From Candidatus Fraserbacteria bacterium (GTDB lineage: Bacteria; Bipolaricaulota; Bipolaricaulia; RBG-16-55-9): 19,102 bases of DNA. A program made the position numbers and the translations under genes. Location of the stretch: assembly GCA_037443265.1 (NCBI GenBank), contig JBBIOR010000008.1, positions 27,994-47,095 on the forward strand, in the 5' to 3' direction. A model generated the notes under the pieces. The model was given only the letters and a program-made list of their open reading frames with translations. It did no database searches and was not told the DNA's origin. This document shows positions 1,735 through 13,565 of this stretch, one piece after another; position 1 is the stretch's first letter; every line of letters starts with the position of its first letter.

Positions 1735-2562
1735 CTAGGCCGCGGACTGCCACCCCAATCTGAAGCGGCATGCGTGCCTAAGCGCAAGCGCCAGCCGCTC
1801 GACCTCGCTCTTCATCCTCTGTCTGCATCCCAGATGCTCTTCTATGAGCTTAATGAGAGCACTCCCCACAATCACCCCATCTGCACCAGCTCGCAGAAGA
1901 GACCACACCTGCTCCGGCCGGCTTATGCCAAATCCCACAAGCAACGGAAGCCCAGTAAGCCCCCGAATCCGCTTTATGGTCTCGATAGTCCTTGGCTCGA
2001 GCTCATCCCGCGCCCCGGTCACCCCCAAGACGGAGACGACGTAAATGAAAGCCTTCGAGTTTCTGATGATTTTGCGCAGCCGCCTCCCTGGCGTCGTGGG
2101 CGCAGCCAGGAAGATCTGAGCTAGGCCCTCTTCACAAGCGGCAGAGAGGACCGGAGCCGACTCTTCTATGGGAAGATCGGCAATAAGAAGGCTATCGACG
2201 CCCGCCTCAGCCACCTGCCCACAGAAATCTTCCACACCCCGGCCATAGACGAGATTATAATACGTGAGAAGGCCAATGGGGATCTCTCCATTCTGCTCGC
2301 GCACCCTTCGGATCAGCTCGAAGGCCCTGTCAGGAGTGATGCCGCTCTCTAGGGCGCGCTGGCTGGCTCGCTGAATCGTGGGCCCATCCGCGATCGGATC
2401 AGAGAACGGCAGCCCCAGCTCCAGCATGTCTGCGCCCGAATCCATGAGGACCTTTATGATATCCAGCGAGGTCTCATAATCCGGGTCGCCCAGGACGACA
2501 AAGGGCACAAAAGCTCCGCATCCCTCCCCGCGTAGCTTCTGAAAGATTTTATAGCGCTCCAT
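1735..2562 (-). CDS. trpA: Tryptophan synthase alpha subunit
   Basis: [39 protein letters not shown] motifs. Confidence 0.98.
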
Positions 2563-3745
2563 GGAGAACTCTTTCCACCTCGAAGAGATCTTTGTCTCCT
2601 CGGCCGCTCAGATTGACGATGATGATCTCGTCTCTTCTAGCGCTCCCGGCCAGCTTGAGCGCATAAGCCAGCGCATGAGCGGACTCCAAGGCCGGAATGA
2701 TCCCCTCCACTTTTGAGAGAATCTGAAAGGCCTCCAGGGCTTCTTCATCTGTGACGGAGACGTATTGCACCCGGCCGATCTCGCGCAGGAAGGCGTGTTC
2801 CGGCCCGACAGCCGGATAGTCCAGCCCGGCGGCGATCGAATGGGTGTTTAAAATCTGGCCGTGCTCATCTTGCAGCACATACGTGAGCGTCCCGTGGAGC
2901 ACCCCCGGCCGGCCCCGCTTAGGATCTCCAAACCGCGAGGCGTGCCGGCCCGTCTTAAGCCCCAAGCCGCCTGCCTCCACGCCGATCAGCTCCACGCGCT
3001 CCGCGAGAAATTCTTTGAAGATCCCGATGGCGTTCGACCCTCCTCCTACGCAAGCAATGATCGCCTGCGGCAGCTTCCCTTCCTCCTCTAGGATCTGCTC
3101 TTTGGTCTCACGGCCAATAATAGACTGAAAGAAGGCCACCATCTCCGGATAGGGGTGCGGCCCCAGGACAGATCCCAGAAGATAATGCGTGTGTTCGACG
3201 CTCTTCGTCCAGTCTCTTAGAGCTTCGTTTATGGCATCTTTAAGGGTCTGGGAGCCGCCGTCTACCGGGATCACTTCAGCCCCTAGAAGCCTCATGCGGA
3301 AGACGTTGATCCTCTGGCGCTCCATGTCTCTTCTACCCATGTAGATCTCGGTCTTGAGGCCCAGCTTAGCCCCGGCGGTGGCGGTGGCCACGCCGTGCTG
3401 GCCCGCCCCGGTCTCCGCGATGAGGCGCCTCTTGCCCATGCGCTTGGCCAGAAGAGCTTGCCCCAGGGCGTTGTTGATCTTGTGAGCTCCCGTGTGCGCC
3501 AAGTCTTCCCGTTTGAGATAGATCTTGCCACCGTATCTTCGGCTTAGATTTTGCGCAAACGTCAAGGGCGTGGGTCGACCGGCATACCGGCGCAAGAGAC
3601 CCTCAAACTCTTCCTTAAAGCTCTTATCGCTCTTGGCCCTATGAAACTTGCGGGCGAGCTCTTCGAGGGCGAACATCAACGTCTCCGGCACGAAGGTGCC
3701 GCCGTAGTTTCCGTACCGGCCTCTCGGGTCTGAGTAGGGCTTCAT
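2549..3745 (-). CDS. trpB: Tryptophan synthase beta subunit
   Basis: [16 protein letters not shown] (PLP lysine), [28 protein letters not shown]. Confidence 0.99.
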
Positions 3746-4515
3746 AGCTCTCCTAGAAGCTCCTTGACTTTGCTCGCTGGATCTTGAGCTTTCAAGATGG
3801 AGGTGCCTACGAGCACTCCGCGGGCTCCCGTGCTTTGAAGATAGAGCACATCGCCACGGGTCAAGACGCCGCTCTCGCTTAGGACTGGCCGATCAGCCCG
3901 CTCCTGTGAAAGAATTCTTTCTGTAACGGAGAGATCCACCGTCAGAGTCTTAAGATTTCTGTTGTTGATCCCGATGATGTCCGTCTCCGTCTCTTTCGCT
4001 TTGATGAACTCTTCCAGGGAGAAGACTTCTAAGACGGTCTCAAGTCCTAGCTCGTGGGCGTATGAGATCATCTCTTTTAGAGGGAGCTGCGTCAGCCCCT
4101 TCTCAAACAGACTCAAGATGAGCAGAGCCGCATCGGCTCCACAGCTCCCTGCCGCCTCTAGCTGCAGGGGGGCGATGACGAAGTCTTTATAGAGCACGGG
4201 CAGGCCATAGCTTTTGGCAATGGAGATGTCCTCCATCTGGCCCGAGAAGACCCGCTTTTCGCACACGATGGCCAGGGCCTGCGCTCCGGCGGCCCAAAGC
4301 TCCTCCACCAAGGGCCCAATCTCGCCCACCCACAGATCCCCCTCCACCGGCGAGCGATGCTCAATGACCGGAATGAGCAAAAAATCCCGAGATGCCATAA
4401 GGCGCCGCAGAGAGATGTGCGGGTAGCGCTGTCTCTTTACGACGTAATGTCCCTCGGCTATGGCTTTCTCGATCTCTGTGCTGATCCCCTCCAGGAAATC
4501 CGTCATAGGGGTCAC
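3742..4515 (-). CDS. trpC: Indole-3-glycerol phosphate synthase, atypical N-terminal active-site motif
   Basis: [36 protein letters not shown] motifs; position in the trp operon. Confidence 0.9.
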
Positions 4516-5543
4516 CTCATCCTTTTGAGGAGCAGCTTAAGTTTCTCATAGGCCGCTCCGCTCTTTAAGCTCTCGTGGGCCAGCATCAGGCCCTCCTCCA
4601 GAGAGCCGGCGGCGCCACTGGCATAGAGCGCGGCCCCAGCATTGAGGAGGAGCATCTCAGAGCGCGCGTCGTGGAGCTTGTTCCGGAGCAACTGTAGGGC
4701 AATCTTTGCGCTCTCTCTGGGAGGGAGCGCCCGAAGCTCATCCGGGTCCGCACGCCGCAGAAAAAACGCCTCCGGCGAGAGCTCATAATGACGGATCTTC
4801 CCATGGAGGAGCTCGCCCACGCGCGTGAGGCCCACATTGGAGAGTTCATCCAGCCCGTCCAGGCCGTAGACGACCAGTGCCCTCTTGATCCCCAGGGCTC
4901 GCAGCACTTCGGGATAGATCTCCACAAGATGGGGGTCAAAGACTCCCATGAGGTGTGCCTGGGCTCCCGCCGGATTGGCCAACGGCCCCAAGAGATTGAA
5001 GATCGTCCGGATGCCCAGGGCCTTCCTTACAGGAGCCGCATGTCTCATGGCCGGATGGAACTTGGGCGCAAATAAGAATCCGATTCCGATCTCCTCGATG
5101 CATCTTTGGACGATGCCGGGCGGGGCCTCCAGATTGAGGCCCAAAGCTTCTAAAAGATCGGCGCTGCCACAGGGGCCGGTGACACTGCGATTGCCGTGCT
5201 TGGCCACCGGCACGCCGGCCCCGGCGACCACAAAGGCCGCCAGCGTCGAGACGTTGAACGTCTTAAGCCGAGCTCCACCGGTGCCACAGACGTCCGTAAG
5301 CAGCCCGCCCATCGCCTGAACTTTGGGATGGATGCGGAGGCTCTTCTCGCGCAGCACTTGGGCACAGGCGACTATCTCTTCGAGCGTCTCGCCCTTGACG
5401 CGCAGCCCCATCAAGAACGCCCCGATCTGCGCAGGATCGCAAGAACCGCTCATCAACTCCCCCATCGCTCCTTTGGCCAGTTCCCCATTCAGATCTTCTC
5501 CCTCTGCCAGCAAAGCGAGGGCCTCGCTGATCTTTTCATTCAT
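4512..5543 (-). CDS. trpD: Anthranilate phosphoribosyltransferase
   Basis: DVCGTGG, TFNVST, VAKHGNRS, GSADLLEALG, RTIFNLLGPLANP, DGLDE. Confidence 0.98.
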   Translation of the reverse strand: MNEKISEALALLAEGEDLNGELAKGAMGELMSGSCDPAQIGAFLMGLRVKGETLEEIVACAQVLREKSLRIHPKVQAMGGLLTDVCGTGGARLKTFNVSTLAAFVVAGAGVPVAKHGNRSVTGPCGSADLLEALGLNLEAPPGIVQRCIEEIGIGFLFAPKFHPAMRHAAPVRKALGIRTIFNLLGPLANPAGAQAHLMGVFDPHLVEIYPEVLRALGIKRALVVYGLDGLDELSNVGLTRVGELLHGKIRHYELSPEAFFLRRADPDELRALPPRESAKIALQLLRNKLHDARSEMLLLNAGAALYASGAAGSLEEGLMLAHESLKSGAAYEKLKLLLKRMR

Positions 5544-6148
5544 GGCACACTCACCCTCCCGCCCCTTAAGATGGCCGGTCCCAGAAAGTTGGAGAGCAGC
5601 CGACGCCCGTATTCTGTCAAGATCGACTCGGGATGAAACTGCACTCCCTCAATGGGCAAGAAGCTGTGGCGAATGCCCATGATCTCGCTCTCTTCAGAGA
5701 TCGCGCTGATCTTAAGACACTTAGGGAGCGAGCGGGGGTCTACGGCCAAGGAGTGATAGCGTGCGGCGCGAAAGCCGTTGGGGATCTTTCGGAATATCCC
5801 CCGGCCATCGTGATAGATCCTAGACGTCTTGCCGTGAAGTATCCGCGTAGCTTGGATAATCTTTCCCCCAAAGACGGCTGCAATGCCCTGATGGCCCAGA
5901 CAGACTCCAAGAGTCGGCACGCGCGGCGAAAGCTCCTTTAAGACGCGCGCACAGAGGCCAAAATCCCGCGCGTTCCCTGGATGCCCCGGACCCGGCGAGA
6001 TCACAATCCGCTCGGGCTTCTGCTCTGCCAGCTGCTCCCACGGCAGCTCATCGTTGCGGAAGACGATGGGCTGCGCTCCCAGTTCGCCCAGATACTGCAC
6101 GAGATTGAAGGTGAAGGAGTCATAGTTATCGATGACTAGGACGCGCAT
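5540..6148 (-). CDS. trpG: Anthranilate synthase component II (glutamine amidotransferase)
   Basis: Start moved to ATG 6148 (MRVLVIDNYDSFTFNL, SD AAGGAGG). Motifs ISPGPG, LGVCLGHQ, RYHSL, GVQFHPES. Confidence 0.97.
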   Translation of the reverse strand: MRVLVIDNYDSFTFNLVQYLGELGAQPIVFRNDELPWEQLAEQKPERIVISPGPGHPGNARDFGLCARVLKELSPRVPTLGVCLGHQGIAAVFGGKIIQATRILHGKTSRIYHDGRGIFRKIPNGFRAARYHSLAVDPRSLPKCLKISAISEESEIMGIRHSFLPIEGVQFHPESILTEYGRRLLSNFLGPAILRGGRVSVP

Positions 6149-7538
6149 GAGGTCGCCTCCTTGAGAGCTGCTCTTAAGGCCGCCAGCTTGCGCTCCGTCT
6201 CCTCCCATTCGCGCTGGGGGACGGAATCATAGACGATCCCCGCCCCAGCTCTTAAGAATAACTTCTCTTTGTCGGCGTAGAGCGTGCGGATGGCAATGGC
6301 CATGTCCAAATTCCCGTTGAGGGAGAGATACCCTACAGCCCCGGCGTACGGCCCGCGGGCCGTCTTCTCCAGCTGGGCGATGATCTCCATGGCTCGAAGC
6401 TTTGGGGCTCCCGTGACGGTGCCCGCGGGGAAGAGCGCAGCGAACGCATCGAGCGCATCAAGATCTCTTCTAAGACGACCCTCCACCCGCGAGACCAGAT
6501 GCTGGACATGACTGAAGCACTCGACGCTTAAAAAATGGGGCACGCGCACGCTGCCGTATTCACTCACCCGGCCGATGTCGTTTCGGGCCAGATCCACGAG
6601 CATGGCGTGCTCCGCCCGTTCCTTCTCATCCGCCAGAAGCTCCTGGCGATAGCGTTCACGCTCCCGTTGCCTACTCCCTAACGGACGCGTCCCCGCAATG
6701 GGATAGGTAATGACGCGTTCGCCTAAGACGGCCACCAGCATCTCCGGGCTGCTGCCCGCGATGATTCGCTCGCCGAAATCTAAAAAGAACATATACGGCG
6801 AAGGGTTGATGCGACGGAGCGCTCGATAGAACGCCAGAAGATCTCCGTCATAGGAGGCAAAAAGCTCGCGTGAGAGCACGGCTTGATAGATCTCACCCGC
6901 GCGGATGGCTTGCCGGATCTGCTCAACGGCTCCTTGGAACTCCTGACGGCAGAGATCTTGGTCGAAGGGGCCAACTCGAAGGCCTTCGACCGGCAGCTCC
7001 GCCCCCTCTAAAGCCTCTTGCACGATGGGGAGGCGATCCTCCCCATATGAGAAGTAATAGGCACGCCCCTGACGATGATCATAGGTGATCCCGTCCAGGA
7101 AGAGCCCCAACTCGAAATCCGGGAAGTTTGAGGGGGGAGAGCGCCGCGGAAACCTCTCCAGATGGCACACAAAGGGGTAACTGAAGTAGCCTACCAGGCC
7201 TCCGGCGTAGCGCTGCAGGGGACCCTCAGCCGAAGCGCTATGATATTGAGCTAGAGTCTCTCTTAAGAACTCCAGCGGGCGACCAAAGCCGGTCTCGACG
7301 CTCCCCGTTTAGCAATAGCCTCCCGGCCTTGAGGGCGAAGAGGGCCACGGGGCTAAAGCCGAGGAAGCTGAACTGGGCCCTCCTCTCTGGAGACGGCGCG
7401 CTCTCTAGAAGAAAGCTGATGCGCGCTCTCTCGCGCAGACGGCGATATAGCTCTAGAGGCTCTAGGGGTGGGATCTCGCAGAAGACGGGGGGAATTTTAG
7501 AAGAAGAACCAAAGATACTCACCCGGCAGAGATCTCAT
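6136..7538 (-). CDS. trpE: Anthranilate synthase component I, encoded in three frames joined by two putative +1 frameshifts (466 aa if both occur)
   Basis: Frame A, 7538-7512: MRSLPGEYL. Frame B, 7510-7286: contains FLLES and FSFLG. Frame C, 7284-6136: contains PLEFLRETL, GGLVGYFSY, NPSPYM, SSPE, PIAGT, EHAMLVDLARND, PAGTVTGAPK, IRT. PIAGT and operon context indicate TrpE rather than PabB. Gene identity is secure; the frameshift mechanism is inferred. Confidence 0.85.
7282..7288 (-). other. Putative +1 frameshift site 2 (CTT TGG T)
   Basis: In-frame CTT (7288-7286) TGG (7285-7283), the only Trp codon in frame B. A +1 slip gives TTT GGT CGC CCG CTG GAG, the frame open to the trpE stop at 6136. 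Confidence 0.65.
7497..7538 (-). CDS. trpE leader / zero-frame ORF MRSLPGEYLWFFF
   Basis: ATG AGA TCT CTG CCG GGT GAG TAT CTT TGG TTC TTC TTC TAA, with SD AAGGAGG (7555-7549) 10 nt upstream and a promoter directly ahead. Confidence 0.8.
   Translation of the reverse strand: MRSLPGEYLWFFF
7508..7524 (-). other. Putative +1 frameshift site 1, prfB-like (GGGTGAG TAT CTT TGG T)
   Basis: SD-like GGTGA(G), TAT spacer, CTT, then TGG; prfB has AGGGGG TAT CTT TGA. A +1 slip enters trpE frame B at GGT 7510. Confidence 0.7.
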
Positions 7539-7562
7539 GGCGGATCATCCTCCTTGGGAGGC

Positions 7563-7591
7563 ATTATAGAAGCACCCTGGGGGAAAGTCAA
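7563..7591 (-). promoter_or_regulatory. sigma70 promoter of the trp operon
   Basis: TTGACT (7591-7586), 17 nt, TATAAT (7568-7563). Predicted start near 7556 leaves a 5' UTR of only about 18 nt. Confidence 0.85.
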
Positions 7592-7612
7592 GGGGCATGA
7601 GCGCGGCCGCCC

Positions 7613-7969
7613 TTAAAACGTGATCACCTGAAAGCCCTGAGCGATCAAGCCTCGCAGGCTGGGATGCTGAGCGTATTCATCTAACAGGGGGATCTTCTTA
7701 GCCAAGAGAGCGTTCTTGACCCCGAAGGCCGCCGCACAATAGCTACACGCCCCGGCTATTTTATCTTGCACGGCCTGATAGAGGGCATGGGCCTTATGGG
7801 AGGGCTCGGCCACTTCGGCCAGCCCCTTGGTCCCGCCACCATCGAAGATGAGCTTCACCTCATCGCGATGCTCCTTGAACTCCTTGGCCGCGATCAACGC
7901 GTTGACCAGGCGCCCCAGGCTCTCATGGGTCTCCGCATCCGCCAGCACGACAAGGGCCAGCTTCGCCAT
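7613..7969 (-). CDS. DsrE/DsrF-like family protein
   Basis: 118 aa; NAL..A, VKLIFDGGG, GACSYCA (CxxC), and GFQVITF C-terminus typical of the DsrE-like fold; purine-rich SD upstream. Confidence 0.75.
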   Translation of the reverse strand: MAKLALVVLADAETHESLGRLVNALIAAKEFKEHRDEVKLIFDGGGTKGLAEVAEPSHKAHALYQAVQDKIAGACSYCAAAFGVKNALLAKKIPLLDEYAQHPSLRGLIAQGFQVITF

Positions 7970-8045
7970 ATTCCCACCTTCTCCTTCTTCTTAAATCGAT
8001 TGAGTTGATTCTAGCCCTCTTCCAGTGGAGCGTCTGTAAGCCCCC

Positions 8046-9203
8046 TTACACGAGGCGGCGTGCGAGGAAGCGCTCCTCAATCTCTGGGAGGGAATCTCCG
8101 CTGAATTTCTCTAAGAAGGCATCGGCCAAGACGAGCGCTAACACCGCCTCGCCCACCACAGAAGCCGCTGGCACGGCACAGACATCCGAGCGCTCGATGT
8201 GCGCCTTCACGGGCTGCTTCGTGATCATATCCACAGAATCCAAGGGGCGCATCAGTGTCGAGAGGGGCTTCATCGCCACGCGTATGACCAGGGGCCCGCC
8301 GGTGCTCACCCCGCCTTCGATGCCCCCGGCCCGTGCCGTCTGACGATAGAACCCTCGCCCCTCTTCATAATAGATCAAATCGTGGGCTTCTGAGCCCCAG
8401 CGCTCGGCTACTTCCCTACCCAGCCCGAACTCCACGGCCTTCATGGCCTGAATGCTCAAGAGAGCCTGAGCGATGCGCGCATGCAGCTTGCGATCCCAGT
8501 GCACATAGCTTCCCAGGCCCACGGGCAGGCCAGTCGCCAGCAGCTCAAAGACCCCGCCCACAGTATCTCTCTTCTTTTGGGCCTCGTCGATGCGCTGGAT
8601 CATCTTCTCTTCGGCTGCTTTGTCCAGACAGCGCACGGGAGACTCATCCGCCCGCGCGGTGATCTCCTCAGGGGGGAGCGAAAGCGCATCCACTCTGCTT
8701 TGGGCATCGAGGATCTGCACTACGTGGCTTGTGATTTTAATCTGAAATCTCTCTAGGAACTGGCGGGCGATGGCCCCCAGAGCCACGCGCACGGCCGTCT
8801 CGCGCGCGCTGGCTCGCTCCAGCACATTGCGCAGATCCCGATGGCCGTATTTGAGAGCCCCGGCGAGATCCGCATGCCCCGGCCGCGGCACCGTCACCGG
8901 CTTATATTCAGCCGGCTTATGCCAAGGGTCCATCAGCCCTTCCCAGTTCTTCCAATCCCGATTCCAGATGAGCACCGCAATGGGACTGCCCAGCGTCACC
9001 CCAAAACGAACCCCCGCAAGAATCTGAGCTTCATCGTGCTCGATCTTCTGTCGAAAGCTGCGGCCATAGCCCCCCTGGCGCCGGCTAAGCTCGTGATTGA
9101 TCCTCTCTAAAGAAAGCTCCAGTCCGGCCGGCATGCCCTCTAAGATGCCGACCAGCGCCCGTCCGTGCGATTCCCCAGCCGTGAGATACCGCAGCCGACT
9201 CAT
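8046..9203 (-). CDS. aroC: Chorismate synthase
   Basis: LRYLTAGESHG, RRQGGYGR, PRPGHADL, ERASARETA, GGIEGG, ERSDVCAVP. Confidence 0.99.
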   Translation of the reverse strand: MSRLRYLTAGESHGRALVGILEGMPAGLELSLERINHELSRRQGGYGRSFRQKIEHDEAQILAGVRFGVTLGSPIAVLIWNRDWKNWEGLMDPWHKPAEYKPVTVPRPGHADLAGALKYGHRDLRNVLERASARETAVRVALGAIARQFLERFQIKITSHVVQILDAQSRVDALSLPPEEITARADESPVRCLDKAAEEKMIQRIDEAQKKRDTVGGVFELLATGLPVGLGSYVHWDRKLHARIAQALLSIQAMKAVEFGLGREVAERWGSEAHDLIYYEEGRGFYRQTARAGGIEGGVSTGGPLVIRVAMKPLSTLMRPLDSVDMITKQPVKAHIERSDVCAVPAASVVGEAVLALVLADAFLEKFSGDSLPEIEERFLARRLV

Positions 9204-13321: not shown

Positions 13322-13438
13322 CCTCCTGATGCTTTTGAGCCCGCTGAGAGCCTCAGACGCTCTCAGGCGCTTGCCGTACCGTCGCGGAAAAGCAAAGGAA
13401 AAGTGAGATGGGAAGGTTTATTGGCCCCGGAGGGGCCA
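13322..13438 (-). promoter_or_regulatory. Structured leader region of the aroF operon (putative attenuator)
   Basis: Hairpin TGGCCCC-tcc-GGGGCCA (13438-13422); pyrimidine tract 13416-13386; hairpin CTGAGAGC-N7-GCTCTCAG (13366-13344); 13400-13388 can pair with AAAAGCA..AGGAG at the aroF SD. Confidence 0.6.
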
Positions 13439-13510
13439 GAAATAGAAGGCAAAAGAGAAGCTCAAGTAGAAGGCCTGTTGTGGAATCTTACTCAGCTGTA
13501 AGCCCGCCAT
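13418..13510 (-). CDS. Aromatic-rich leader peptide MAGLQLSKIPQQAFYLSFSFAFYFWPLRGQ
   Basis: 30 codons; SD AGAGGAG 8 nt upstream; 5 Phe, 2 Tyr and 1 Trp within codons 14-25; lies between the promoter and aroF. Confidence 0.85.
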   Translation of the reverse strand: MAGLQLSKIPQQAFYLSFSFAFYFWPLRGQ

Positions 13511-13536
13511 CTCTTACGCTCCTCTTGTGAGAGGTC

Positions 13537-13565
13537 ACTATAGCATGATTCACCGACTTTGTCAA
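13537..13565 (-). promoter_or_regulatory. sigma70 promoter of the leader-aroF-tyrA-aroA-aroE-aroC operon
   Basis: TTGACA (13565-13560, overlapping the pheA TGA stop), 17 nt, TATAGT (13542-13537) with extended -10 TGn. Confidence 0.88.

Follow-up and report, generated by a model that had tools for sequence, protein, structure and literature searches.

Probable tryptophan-codon +1 frameshifting in trpE expression of a Candidatus Fraserbacteria genome, with matching leader cassettes in Bacteria and Archaea

We analysed a 19,102-nucleotide (nt) stretch of a Candidatus Fraserbacteria genome (GenBank assembly GCA_037443265.1, contig JBBIOR010000008.1, positions 27,994–47,095; the whole stretch is called the window here and its positions are counted from its first letter), in which trpE, the gene for anthranilate synthase component I, is spread over three reading frames on the minus strand. 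Both frame junctions carry the same heptamer, CTT-TGG-T (7514–7508 and 7288–7282), the first of them inside a short leader open reading frame (ORF). The build of these junctions and their recurrence in related loci make it probable that expression of trpE depends on programmed +1 ribosomal frameshifting, with charged tRNA-Trp as the sensed molecule. The element is constructed like the frameshift site of prfB, yet it stands outside the RF2 system because its A-site codon is the sense codon UGG and not UGA, and it is best filed as a programmed +1 frameshift doing the job of a trp attenuator.

The leader ORF and the proposed first shift site

In the upstream part of trpE the minus strand reads GGGTGAG-TAT-CTT-TGG (7524–7509), as given in a preliminary description of this DNA, whose range of 7508–7524 covers the sequence and takes in one extra base, T7508. 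The window contains a single copy of the pattern GGTGA-N4-CTTTGG, where 0.01 would be expected (200 shuffles). It lies within a zero-frame leader ORF of 13 codons (MRSLPGEYLWFFF; 7497–7538, minus strand) that starts at ATG 7538 and ends at a stop codon at 7499–7497, three codons past the UGG, which is codon 10 and the only Trp codon of the leader. The Shine-Dalgarno (SD)-like box GGGTGAG (7518–7524, minus strand) is placed 3 nt upstream of the P-site codon and contains a rival start codon, GTG 7522–7520. Shift site 1 itself (CTT-TGG-T, 7508–7514, minus strand) has CTT as P-site codon (7514–7512) and TGG as A-site codon (7511–7509) followed by T7508, with GGT (7510–7508) as the codon that would be read after the slip.

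The frame encoding the N-terminus of TrpE is +1 to the leader, the frame relationship that had been described for the two ORFs, and is open from 7534 to a TAG at 7240–7238. TrpE segment 1 (7286–7510, minus strand; 75 codons in this +1 frame) comprises a linker and the conserved N-terminal core (...LYRRLRE..SFLLESAP...; TIGR00564 positions 5–51). GTG 7522–7520 is the only start codon in this frame, and the SD-like run nearest to it, AAGGAGG at 7555–7549, ends 26 nt upstream with nothing SD-like in between, which bears out the earlier remark that this GTG has no SD at a usable distance.

The leader ORF has expression signals of its own. Its SD region, AAGGAGGATGATCC (7542–7555, minus strand), ends 3 nt before the ATG and complements the 3' end of 16S rRNA (GGATCACCTCCTTTCT), and relatives carry GAGGTGATC at the same position. 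Directly upstream lies a promoter-like TTGACT-17 nt-TATAAT (7563–7591, minus strand) with 11 of 12 consensus matches (1 found vs 0.2 expected); pairs of a similar kind (TTGAC..TATAAT) precede the leader ORF in relatives too. The stretch CCUCC-CAA-GGAGG (7549–7559, minus strand) could form a 5-base-pair hairpin that would mask the leader SD, and this hairpin is present in both the minimum-energy and the centroid folds.

By a structure test this is not an attenuator of the trpL type, since no terminator-like site was found in 7100–8100, the fold of 7562–7440 is no more stable than its shuffles (z = 0.20) and the leader overlaps trpE; the whole window gave 0 Rfam matches at gathering score. The source genome (G000) contains tRNA-Leu(GAG) and a single tRNA-Trp(CCA) gene.

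A proposed second shift site within trpE

Shift site 2 (CTT-TGG-T, 7282–7288, minus strand; CTT 7288–7286, TGG 7285–7283, T7282) stands in the context GAC-CGG-CTT-TGG-TCG, which encodes D-R-L-W. Beyond it the zero frame stops 16 codons on, at TAG 7240–7238, and the frame of the main body (7308–6136) is again +1. TrpE segment 2, the main body of anthranilate synthase component I (6136–7284, minus strand; 382 codons plus stop in the second +1 frame), matches TIGR01820 with an E-value of 5.9e-135. In this last frame no start codon occurs before GTG 7170, by which point conserved residues such as GGLVGYFSY have been passed, and site 2 is the sole route from the N-terminal segment of TrpE into the main body.

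A conceptual TrpE was obtained by reading TGGT as one step (TGGT=G), which is equivalent to reading CTT, skipping T and reading GGT. The alternative rule CTTT=L was dropped because a third CTTT in frame, at L225, makes it shift once too often. The two-shift product is 466 amino acids long; residues 27–458 align in one stretch with positions 1–448 of 449 of TIGR01820 (E 1e-140), and the product aligns collinearly with nine relatives through the two junctions, neither of which shows a gap.

The nearest relative with trpE (G001), from another genus at 69% protein identity, has a site 1 identical to that of the window (GGGTGAGTATCTTTGG) and GAC-AGG-CTT-TGG-TCG at the aligned site 2, where the same +1 shift is needed and where the zero frame ends 19 codons after the site, compared with 16 in the window. 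All other relatives are uninterrupted at the position of site 2. A shared inactivating mutation at site 2 appears unlikely, given that the flanking frames are open and conserved across a divergence to 69% identity. A metagenome scan for further copies of site 2 (pattern GAGACNGGCTTTGGTCGNCCG) returned 2 matches, both in unrelated high-GC DNA lacking a TrpE frame.

Conservation of the cassette in the phylum

The phylum of the window was represented by one class, of which 184 species-level genomes were searched, yielding 36 trpE places in 35 genomes. Thirty-three trpE 5' regions were recovered (the window and 32 further loci), three additional loci being cut by contig ends. The layout of a leader ORF, the cassette [GA]GTG[AG][TG]-NNN-[CG]TT-TGG and TrpE in the +1 frame is present in 32/33 of these regions, as is the single leader Trp codon at the cassette; only locus L008 (genome G035) lacks the layout. 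The leaders are preceded by an SD, start with ATG in 31 cases and with GTG in L029, run for 10–17 codons to the cassette and stop 3–23 codons after the Trp codon.

Across the 32 cassettes TTTGG is invariant, as is GTG at positions -8 to -6. The consensus from -10 to -3 is (G/A)GGTGATC, which places the box 2 nt from the P-site codon, and the changes seen at -10 (G/A), -5 (A/G) and -3 (C/T) preserve pairing with GGAUCACC of 16S rRNA by way of wobble. GTT serves as P-site codon in 20 cassettes and CTT in 12. Ahead of the P site stands CGG, CGC, CGA or CGT, a variation that is silent in the leader frame and gives Gly, Ala, Glu or Val in the TrpE frame, and the variation TCG, TCA or TCC directly after TGG leaves the TrpE residue unchanged. 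Selection at the protein level thus appears to move from one frame to the other at the proposed shift site, although few codons bear on this.

A trpE of the window type occurs in 35/184 genomes of the phylum, with 0/74 in one family (f8) and 6/50 in another (f9); many members appear to be without Trp synthesis or to have a different TrpE.

Comparison with prfB and the 16S rRNA 3' end

The preliminary description had called site 1 a near copy of the prfB cassette and had proposed comparing it with the prfB site and the 16S 3' end of the same organism; both comparisons agreed with frameshifting. In the source genome the prfB site reads TTA-GGT-GAT-CGC-CTT-TGA-C, with frame 0 ending ...K-A-L-G-D-R-L-stop and RF2 in the +1 frame, and has the same box, spacing and CTT-T as site 1. 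The 16S rRNA 3' end, found on contig C19, is GGATCACCTCCTTTCT; the sequence GGTGATC is its perfect 7-base complement, and GGGTGAG of the window pairs with it over 5–6 bases, as had been expected for GGTGA. When the source genome was scanned for the combination of box, NTT and ORF geometry, prfB and trpE were the only genes among strict GGTGA boxes. A search for other CTT-TGG frameshift genes in this genome gave 61 candidates, nearly all of them ordinary F-G pairs near N-termini, and the candidate at C12:5298 has a normal ATG start.

The likeness between the two genes is closer still elsewhere in the phylum. In G036 the prfB site (ATAGGTGATCGGGTTTGACC) and the trpE leader (ATAGGTGATCGGGTTTGGCC) agree in all 17 nt that precede the A/G by which TGA and TGG differ, and the trpE cassette of G008 (GGT-GAT-CGC-CTT-TGG) equals the prfB cassette of the source genome save for one base. 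Among 26 prfB 5' regions read in the phylum, NTT-TGA stands in shift register in 22, mostly as GGN-GAT-CGY-CTT-TGA-C (...G-D-R-L-stop), and the trpE leaders of relatives end correspondingly in G-D-R-L-W or G-D-R-V-W. The other four prfB genes have no frameshift (G039, G084, G041 and G106; loci L048, L052, L063 and L067). G039, G084 and G041 keep the trpE cassette despite their uninterrupted prfB, as does G106 (locus L040), and the trpE element is therefore independent of a frameshifted prfB in the same genome.

Occurrence in Archaea

The TrpE of the window is of the archaeal type (TIGR01820), and its best matches include archaeal metagenome-assembled genomes (MAGs) at 49–53% identity. A wider search of genome collections gave at least 80 loci; those listed have at most 54% identity and include none from the phylum of the window, and among these listed matches three carry the cassette: L075 from a Methanobacteriaceae MAG (leader MKGSECFW...), L076 from an uncultured archaeon (leader MNGGYLW...) and L077 from Candidatus Wolframiiraptor allenii (G186; leader MNGGCLWL, then stop). 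Two further loci, L079 and L098, look similar to these but have no leader ORF and were set aside. The locus L080, from the Armatimonadetes bacterium CSP1-3 MAG, offers a contrast to the overlapping leaders with one Trp codon: its 7-codon ORF MTAWWPR (about 974–995), a long way ahead of the trpE core, has tandem Trp codons and looks like a classical attenuation leader.

The search of the archaeal class of G186 covered 76 genomes, of which 36 had trpE; of the 30 loci examined, 28 carry the cassette and the other two are cut by contig ends (28/28 evaluable). Eleven of these loci (L168–L176, L178 and L179) have the form GGN-G[GA]T-[TC]TA-GTT-TGG, in which the TrpE frame reads ...TAG-TTT-GGC and opens exactly at the shift site. 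In 13 loci of the class no ATG, GTG or TTG occurs in the TrpE frame ahead of the site, and four of the loci (L169, L175, L176 and L179) also have no start codon in the next 50 codons, which pass the conserved YLLESVSGPRKLAE core (YLLESVSGP). With no start codon, or with a TAG before TTT-GG, ordinary initiation cannot yield TrpE at these loci, and a +1 shift is the only reading found. The GTG of the box is not conserved in this class, being absent from 13/28 cassettes.

In six of the loci (L169–L172, L176 and L179) the conserved leader C-L-R-G-L-(S)-R-G-G-L-V-W has no ATG; its sole conventional start is a TTG right after GAGG, and TATA-like sequences (TTAAATA/TTATATA) lie some 30–45 nt upstream.

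The Methanobacteria provide a second archaeal group. Of 201 genomes sampled 186 have trpE, and among the best 30 of these 186, 28 combine an SD-ATG leader, M-x-x-[SC]-E-C-F-W, with [AT]GT-GAA-TG[TC]-TTT-TGG and TrpE in the +1 frame; of the exceptions, L187 contains N's and L194 was not resolved. At L212 TGC replaces TGT, a change that is silent in the leader frame and turns Val into Ala in the TrpE frame. Several of the cassettes are on single-contig genomes, and given such complete genomes the carriers are probably culturable. In total the A-site UGG is present in all 88 cassettes (32 bacterial, 28 from the G186 class and 28 from Methanobacteria) and in both copies of site 2, while flanking codons vary.

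Proposed mechanism and alternative explanations

Under the proposed control, ribosomes would initiate at the leader ORF (SD, ATG 7538) and reach a point at which CUU, codon 9, is in the P site and the sole Trp codon, UGG, is in the A site, with the GGGUGAG box, slightly too near the P site, pairing with the 16S 3' end. With plentiful Trp-tRNA the UGG would be decoded, translation would stop three codons on and no TrpE would be made. With scarce Trp-tRNA the A site would stay empty, peptidyl-tRNA-Leu(GAG) would slip from CUU to UUU and reading would resume at GGU in the TrpE frame. The second CUU-UGG-U, 75 codons on, would be passed likewise in the genus of the window and in one sister genus, and two sites in series would make TrpE output rise roughly with the square of the shift rate, giving a steeper response. 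Such control would have the right sign without a terminator, a fold or a known RNA family. From the sequence layout, and from what is established for prfB and for hungry codons (PMC5009743), we infer that shifting takes place in the source organism, that its rate would be set by the level of Trp-tRNA and that the box would act through rRNA pairing; the sensing of Trp-tRNA is suggested by the invariance of UGG.

Several observations weigh against this interpretation or against parts of it. The two-shift product scores 470 bits, under the TIGR01820 equivalog cut-off of 512.05. Site 2 has no SD-like box at the distance seen for site 1 (CGAGAC is found there), and in-frame CTT-TGG is not avoided in the source genome, with 115 occurrences vs 89.7 expected in 1087 long ORFs, so that the dicodon alone is not strongly shifty and does not account for a shift at site 2; nor was any codon-pair avoidance of NTT-TGG found in this genome. 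Several archaeal leader ORFs of the TAG type have no ATG and may start at a TTG instead. Two leaders, those of L003 (G009) and L188 (G405), start with ATGAATG, in which the second ATG, 4 nt on, opens the TrpE frame directly, and G009 and G405 could therefore make TrpE without a shift. The comparison with prfB is also uneven. The T that makes GTG is kept in only 11/22 frameshifted prfB cassettes vs 32/32 in trpE, an extra constraint that would suit a GTG start codon, and the P-site codon is CTT in 21/22 prfB cassettes vs GTT in 20/32 trpE cassettes, with no support for co-variation between the genes; G036 alone has GTT in prfB. As far as these counts reach, both the partial retention of GTG and the CTT bias of prfB run against a simple 'copy' story.

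The GTG is the centre of the alternative in which no shift occurs at site 1, the short ORF being an ordinary Trp leader peptide that overlaps the true TrpE start at GTG 7522 and regulates by occlusion or coupling, and in which only site 2 is recoded. It draws on the presence of GTG in the same register in 32/32 cassettes of the phylum and 28/28 of the Methanobacteria, and on a TrpE frame that always opens at this GTG or shortly ahead of it. We regard it as improbable nonetheless. No SD lies in reach of the GTG (none within 19–26 nt), and a ribosome paused at UGG would cover it, so that starvation would lower TrpE, the wrong direction for a biosynthetic gene. The same GTG is part of the perfect 16S complement GGTGATC, whose neighbouring positions vary only in ways that preserve pairing, and substitutions in the codon that separates GTG from the shift site are silent for the leader but not for TrpE. 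Of the 13 cassettes of the G186 class without the GTG, 11 have a TAG between its position and TTT-GG, and wherever TrpE starts, site 2 of the window calls for a +1 shift at an identical CUU-UGG-U. The earlier proposal that TrpE is entered by frameshifting is thus upheld by the second CTT-TGG, with its need for the same shift, and by the 11 archaeal loci with a stop before the site; at site 1 itself the invariant GTG (32/32 in the phylum) leaves a start there as a formal alternative. Taken as a whole, the interpretation put forward in the preliminary description is supported by the sequences compared here.

Alternatively, the frameshifts could be real but constitutive, either a fixed low-efficiency throttle or tolerated 'savior' indels, and in both cases unresponsive to tryptophan supply. 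The frequency of in-frame CTT-TGG in the source genome may mean that the UGG pause is brief in normal growth, and trp operons of Archaea are under other control, TrpY being described as a known trp regulator in Methanothermobacter in the accessible text of PMC6737238. We think this unlikely, however, as every cassette, and likewise site 2 in both genera, has UGG in the A site, as the gene concerned is in each case the first of Trp synthesis and the flanking codons vary, and as the layout mirrors that of prfB, in which the A-site codon is the sensor. Far less credible is a trpE pseudogene or frame breaks introduced by assembly errors, a concern raised by a gene in three frames within a MAG that is 88% complete. 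A Logan contig of one run containing the stretch, produced by a second assembler at a depth of 16.6, shows 0 differences over 6900–7700; no RNA run is listed for the stretch, and this DNA run, the only one containing it, probably represents the source sample itself. Both breaks are moreover common to G001, from another genus at 69% protein identity, with frames otherwise open and conserved, the site 1 layout is found in about 90 genomes from two domains, and the downstream trpGDCBA genes are intact. Frameshifting paced by Trp-tRNA accordingly remains the reading we favour for trpE.

Operon context

Downstream of trpE, the genes trpG, trpD, trpC, trpB and trpA (1735–6208, minus strand) overlap or abut one another, each with an NCBIfam match, and are presumably co-expressed on the trpE mRNA. 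They close a minus-strand supraoperon that comprises DAHP synthase, prephenate dehydrogenase, aroA, aroE, aroC, a small DsrE-like ORF and then trpE-G-D-C-B-A; trpF is not in the trpE-G-D-C-B-A operon (1735–7538, minus strand; the search covered this operon and not the rest of the genome). Between aroC and the trp promoter, the small ORF (118 amino acids; 7613–7969, minus strand) weakly resembles DsrE/DsrF (21.8 bits, slightly below the cut-off of 22.7) and is an odd neighbour for an aromatic amino-acid operon. Further along, a 210-nt stretch (13353–13561, minus strand) separates a PDT-only prephenate dehydratase ORF, which has no ACT domain, from the DAHP synthase gene; no ORF of note and no Rfam match were found in it. 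A further frame break in this pheA/aroF region was considered and rejected, the only irregularity being this 210-nt gap after the PDT-only ORF.

Relation to known systems

The proposed element shares with prfB a short zero-frame ORF with its own start, an SD-like box 2–3 nt upstream of NUU-U, a slow A-site codon and a functional protein in the +1 frame. It differs in that the A-site codon is UGG and not UGA, in that it would sense Trp-tRNA instead of the gene's own product and would regulate a biosynthetic enzyme, and in that the trpE of the window has two sites in series, the second without a box. The trpE layout also occurs in Archaea, which are not known to have prfB. In attenuators of the trpL type the trp mRNA likewise starts with a short leader ORF, whose one or more Trp codons report Trp-tRNA supply through ribosome pausing. 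The trpE leader, in contrast, has one Trp codon and no tandem, lacks a terminator/antiterminator and an Rfam family, and overlaps its gene, and its output would be a change of reading frame and not of transcription. Frameshifting is also reported from pheL, the leader peptide gene of another amino-acid operon, where it is said in the title of the report, cited in PMC3711429, to be 'apparently incidental' and reportedly gives no access to a structural gene.

In the eukaryotic antizyme system the A-site codon is a stop codon, the sensor responds to polyamine levels and the product inhibits the pathway instead of being its first enzyme. Feedback on a metabolite pathway by way of +1 frameshifting is described for antizyme in the accessible text of 10.1101/469692, and feeding a pathway back through the +1 shift rate is what it shares with the proposed trpE control. 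The retrotransposon Ty1 is alike in the slip itself, in which a P-site CUU moves onto UUA/UUU as the A site awaits the tRNA for a sense codon that is decoded slowly; for its site, CUU_AGG_C, the available part of the review by Atkins et al. 2016 (PMC5009743) gives 40% shifting and explains the term 'hungry' codon. Ty1 is, however, a eukaryotic mobile element in which a rare tRNA makes the codon slow, the ratio is fixed and no rRNA-pairing box is present.

Frameshifting at hungry codons is a phenomenon known for decades from laboratory constructs. In the same review, as far as its text was available, the natural role of such frameshifting under starvation is called unclear, and anthranilate, Trp and CUU UGG go unmentioned; anthranilate, trpE and tryptophan are likewise unmentioned in Antonov et al. 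2013. Full-text literature searches, whose coverage mostly leaves out subscription journals, gave no link of frameshifting with trpE or anthranilate synthase, and control of trpE by frameshifting at a Trp codon looks unreported.

Implications

On balance, we lean towards the wider view that an ancient 'ribosomal attenuator' exists in Bacteria and Archaea, present throughout a bacterial phylum, in a class of Thermoproteota-like archaea and in Methanobacteria, in which a NUU-UGG +1 frameshift in the leader serves as a Trp-tRNA sensor gating anthranilate synthase, which travels with the archaeal-type TrpE, which has two sensors stacked in the lineage of the window and which would be the first natural hungry-codon control of amino-acid biosynthesis. 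If this is true, hungry-codon frameshifting would be a designed sensor of an amino-acid pathway that needs no RNA switch or protein regulator and is common to two domains, and leader-peptide control would gain a third mode next to transcription attenuation and translational arrest. Such a sensor would also account for why trpE in many genomes seems interrupted or has an odd start, which is a gene-calling difficulty for annotation pipelines, and would supply a compact and portable Trp-responsive part. With carriers among the Methanobacteria, the proposal should be directly testable in cultured organisms.

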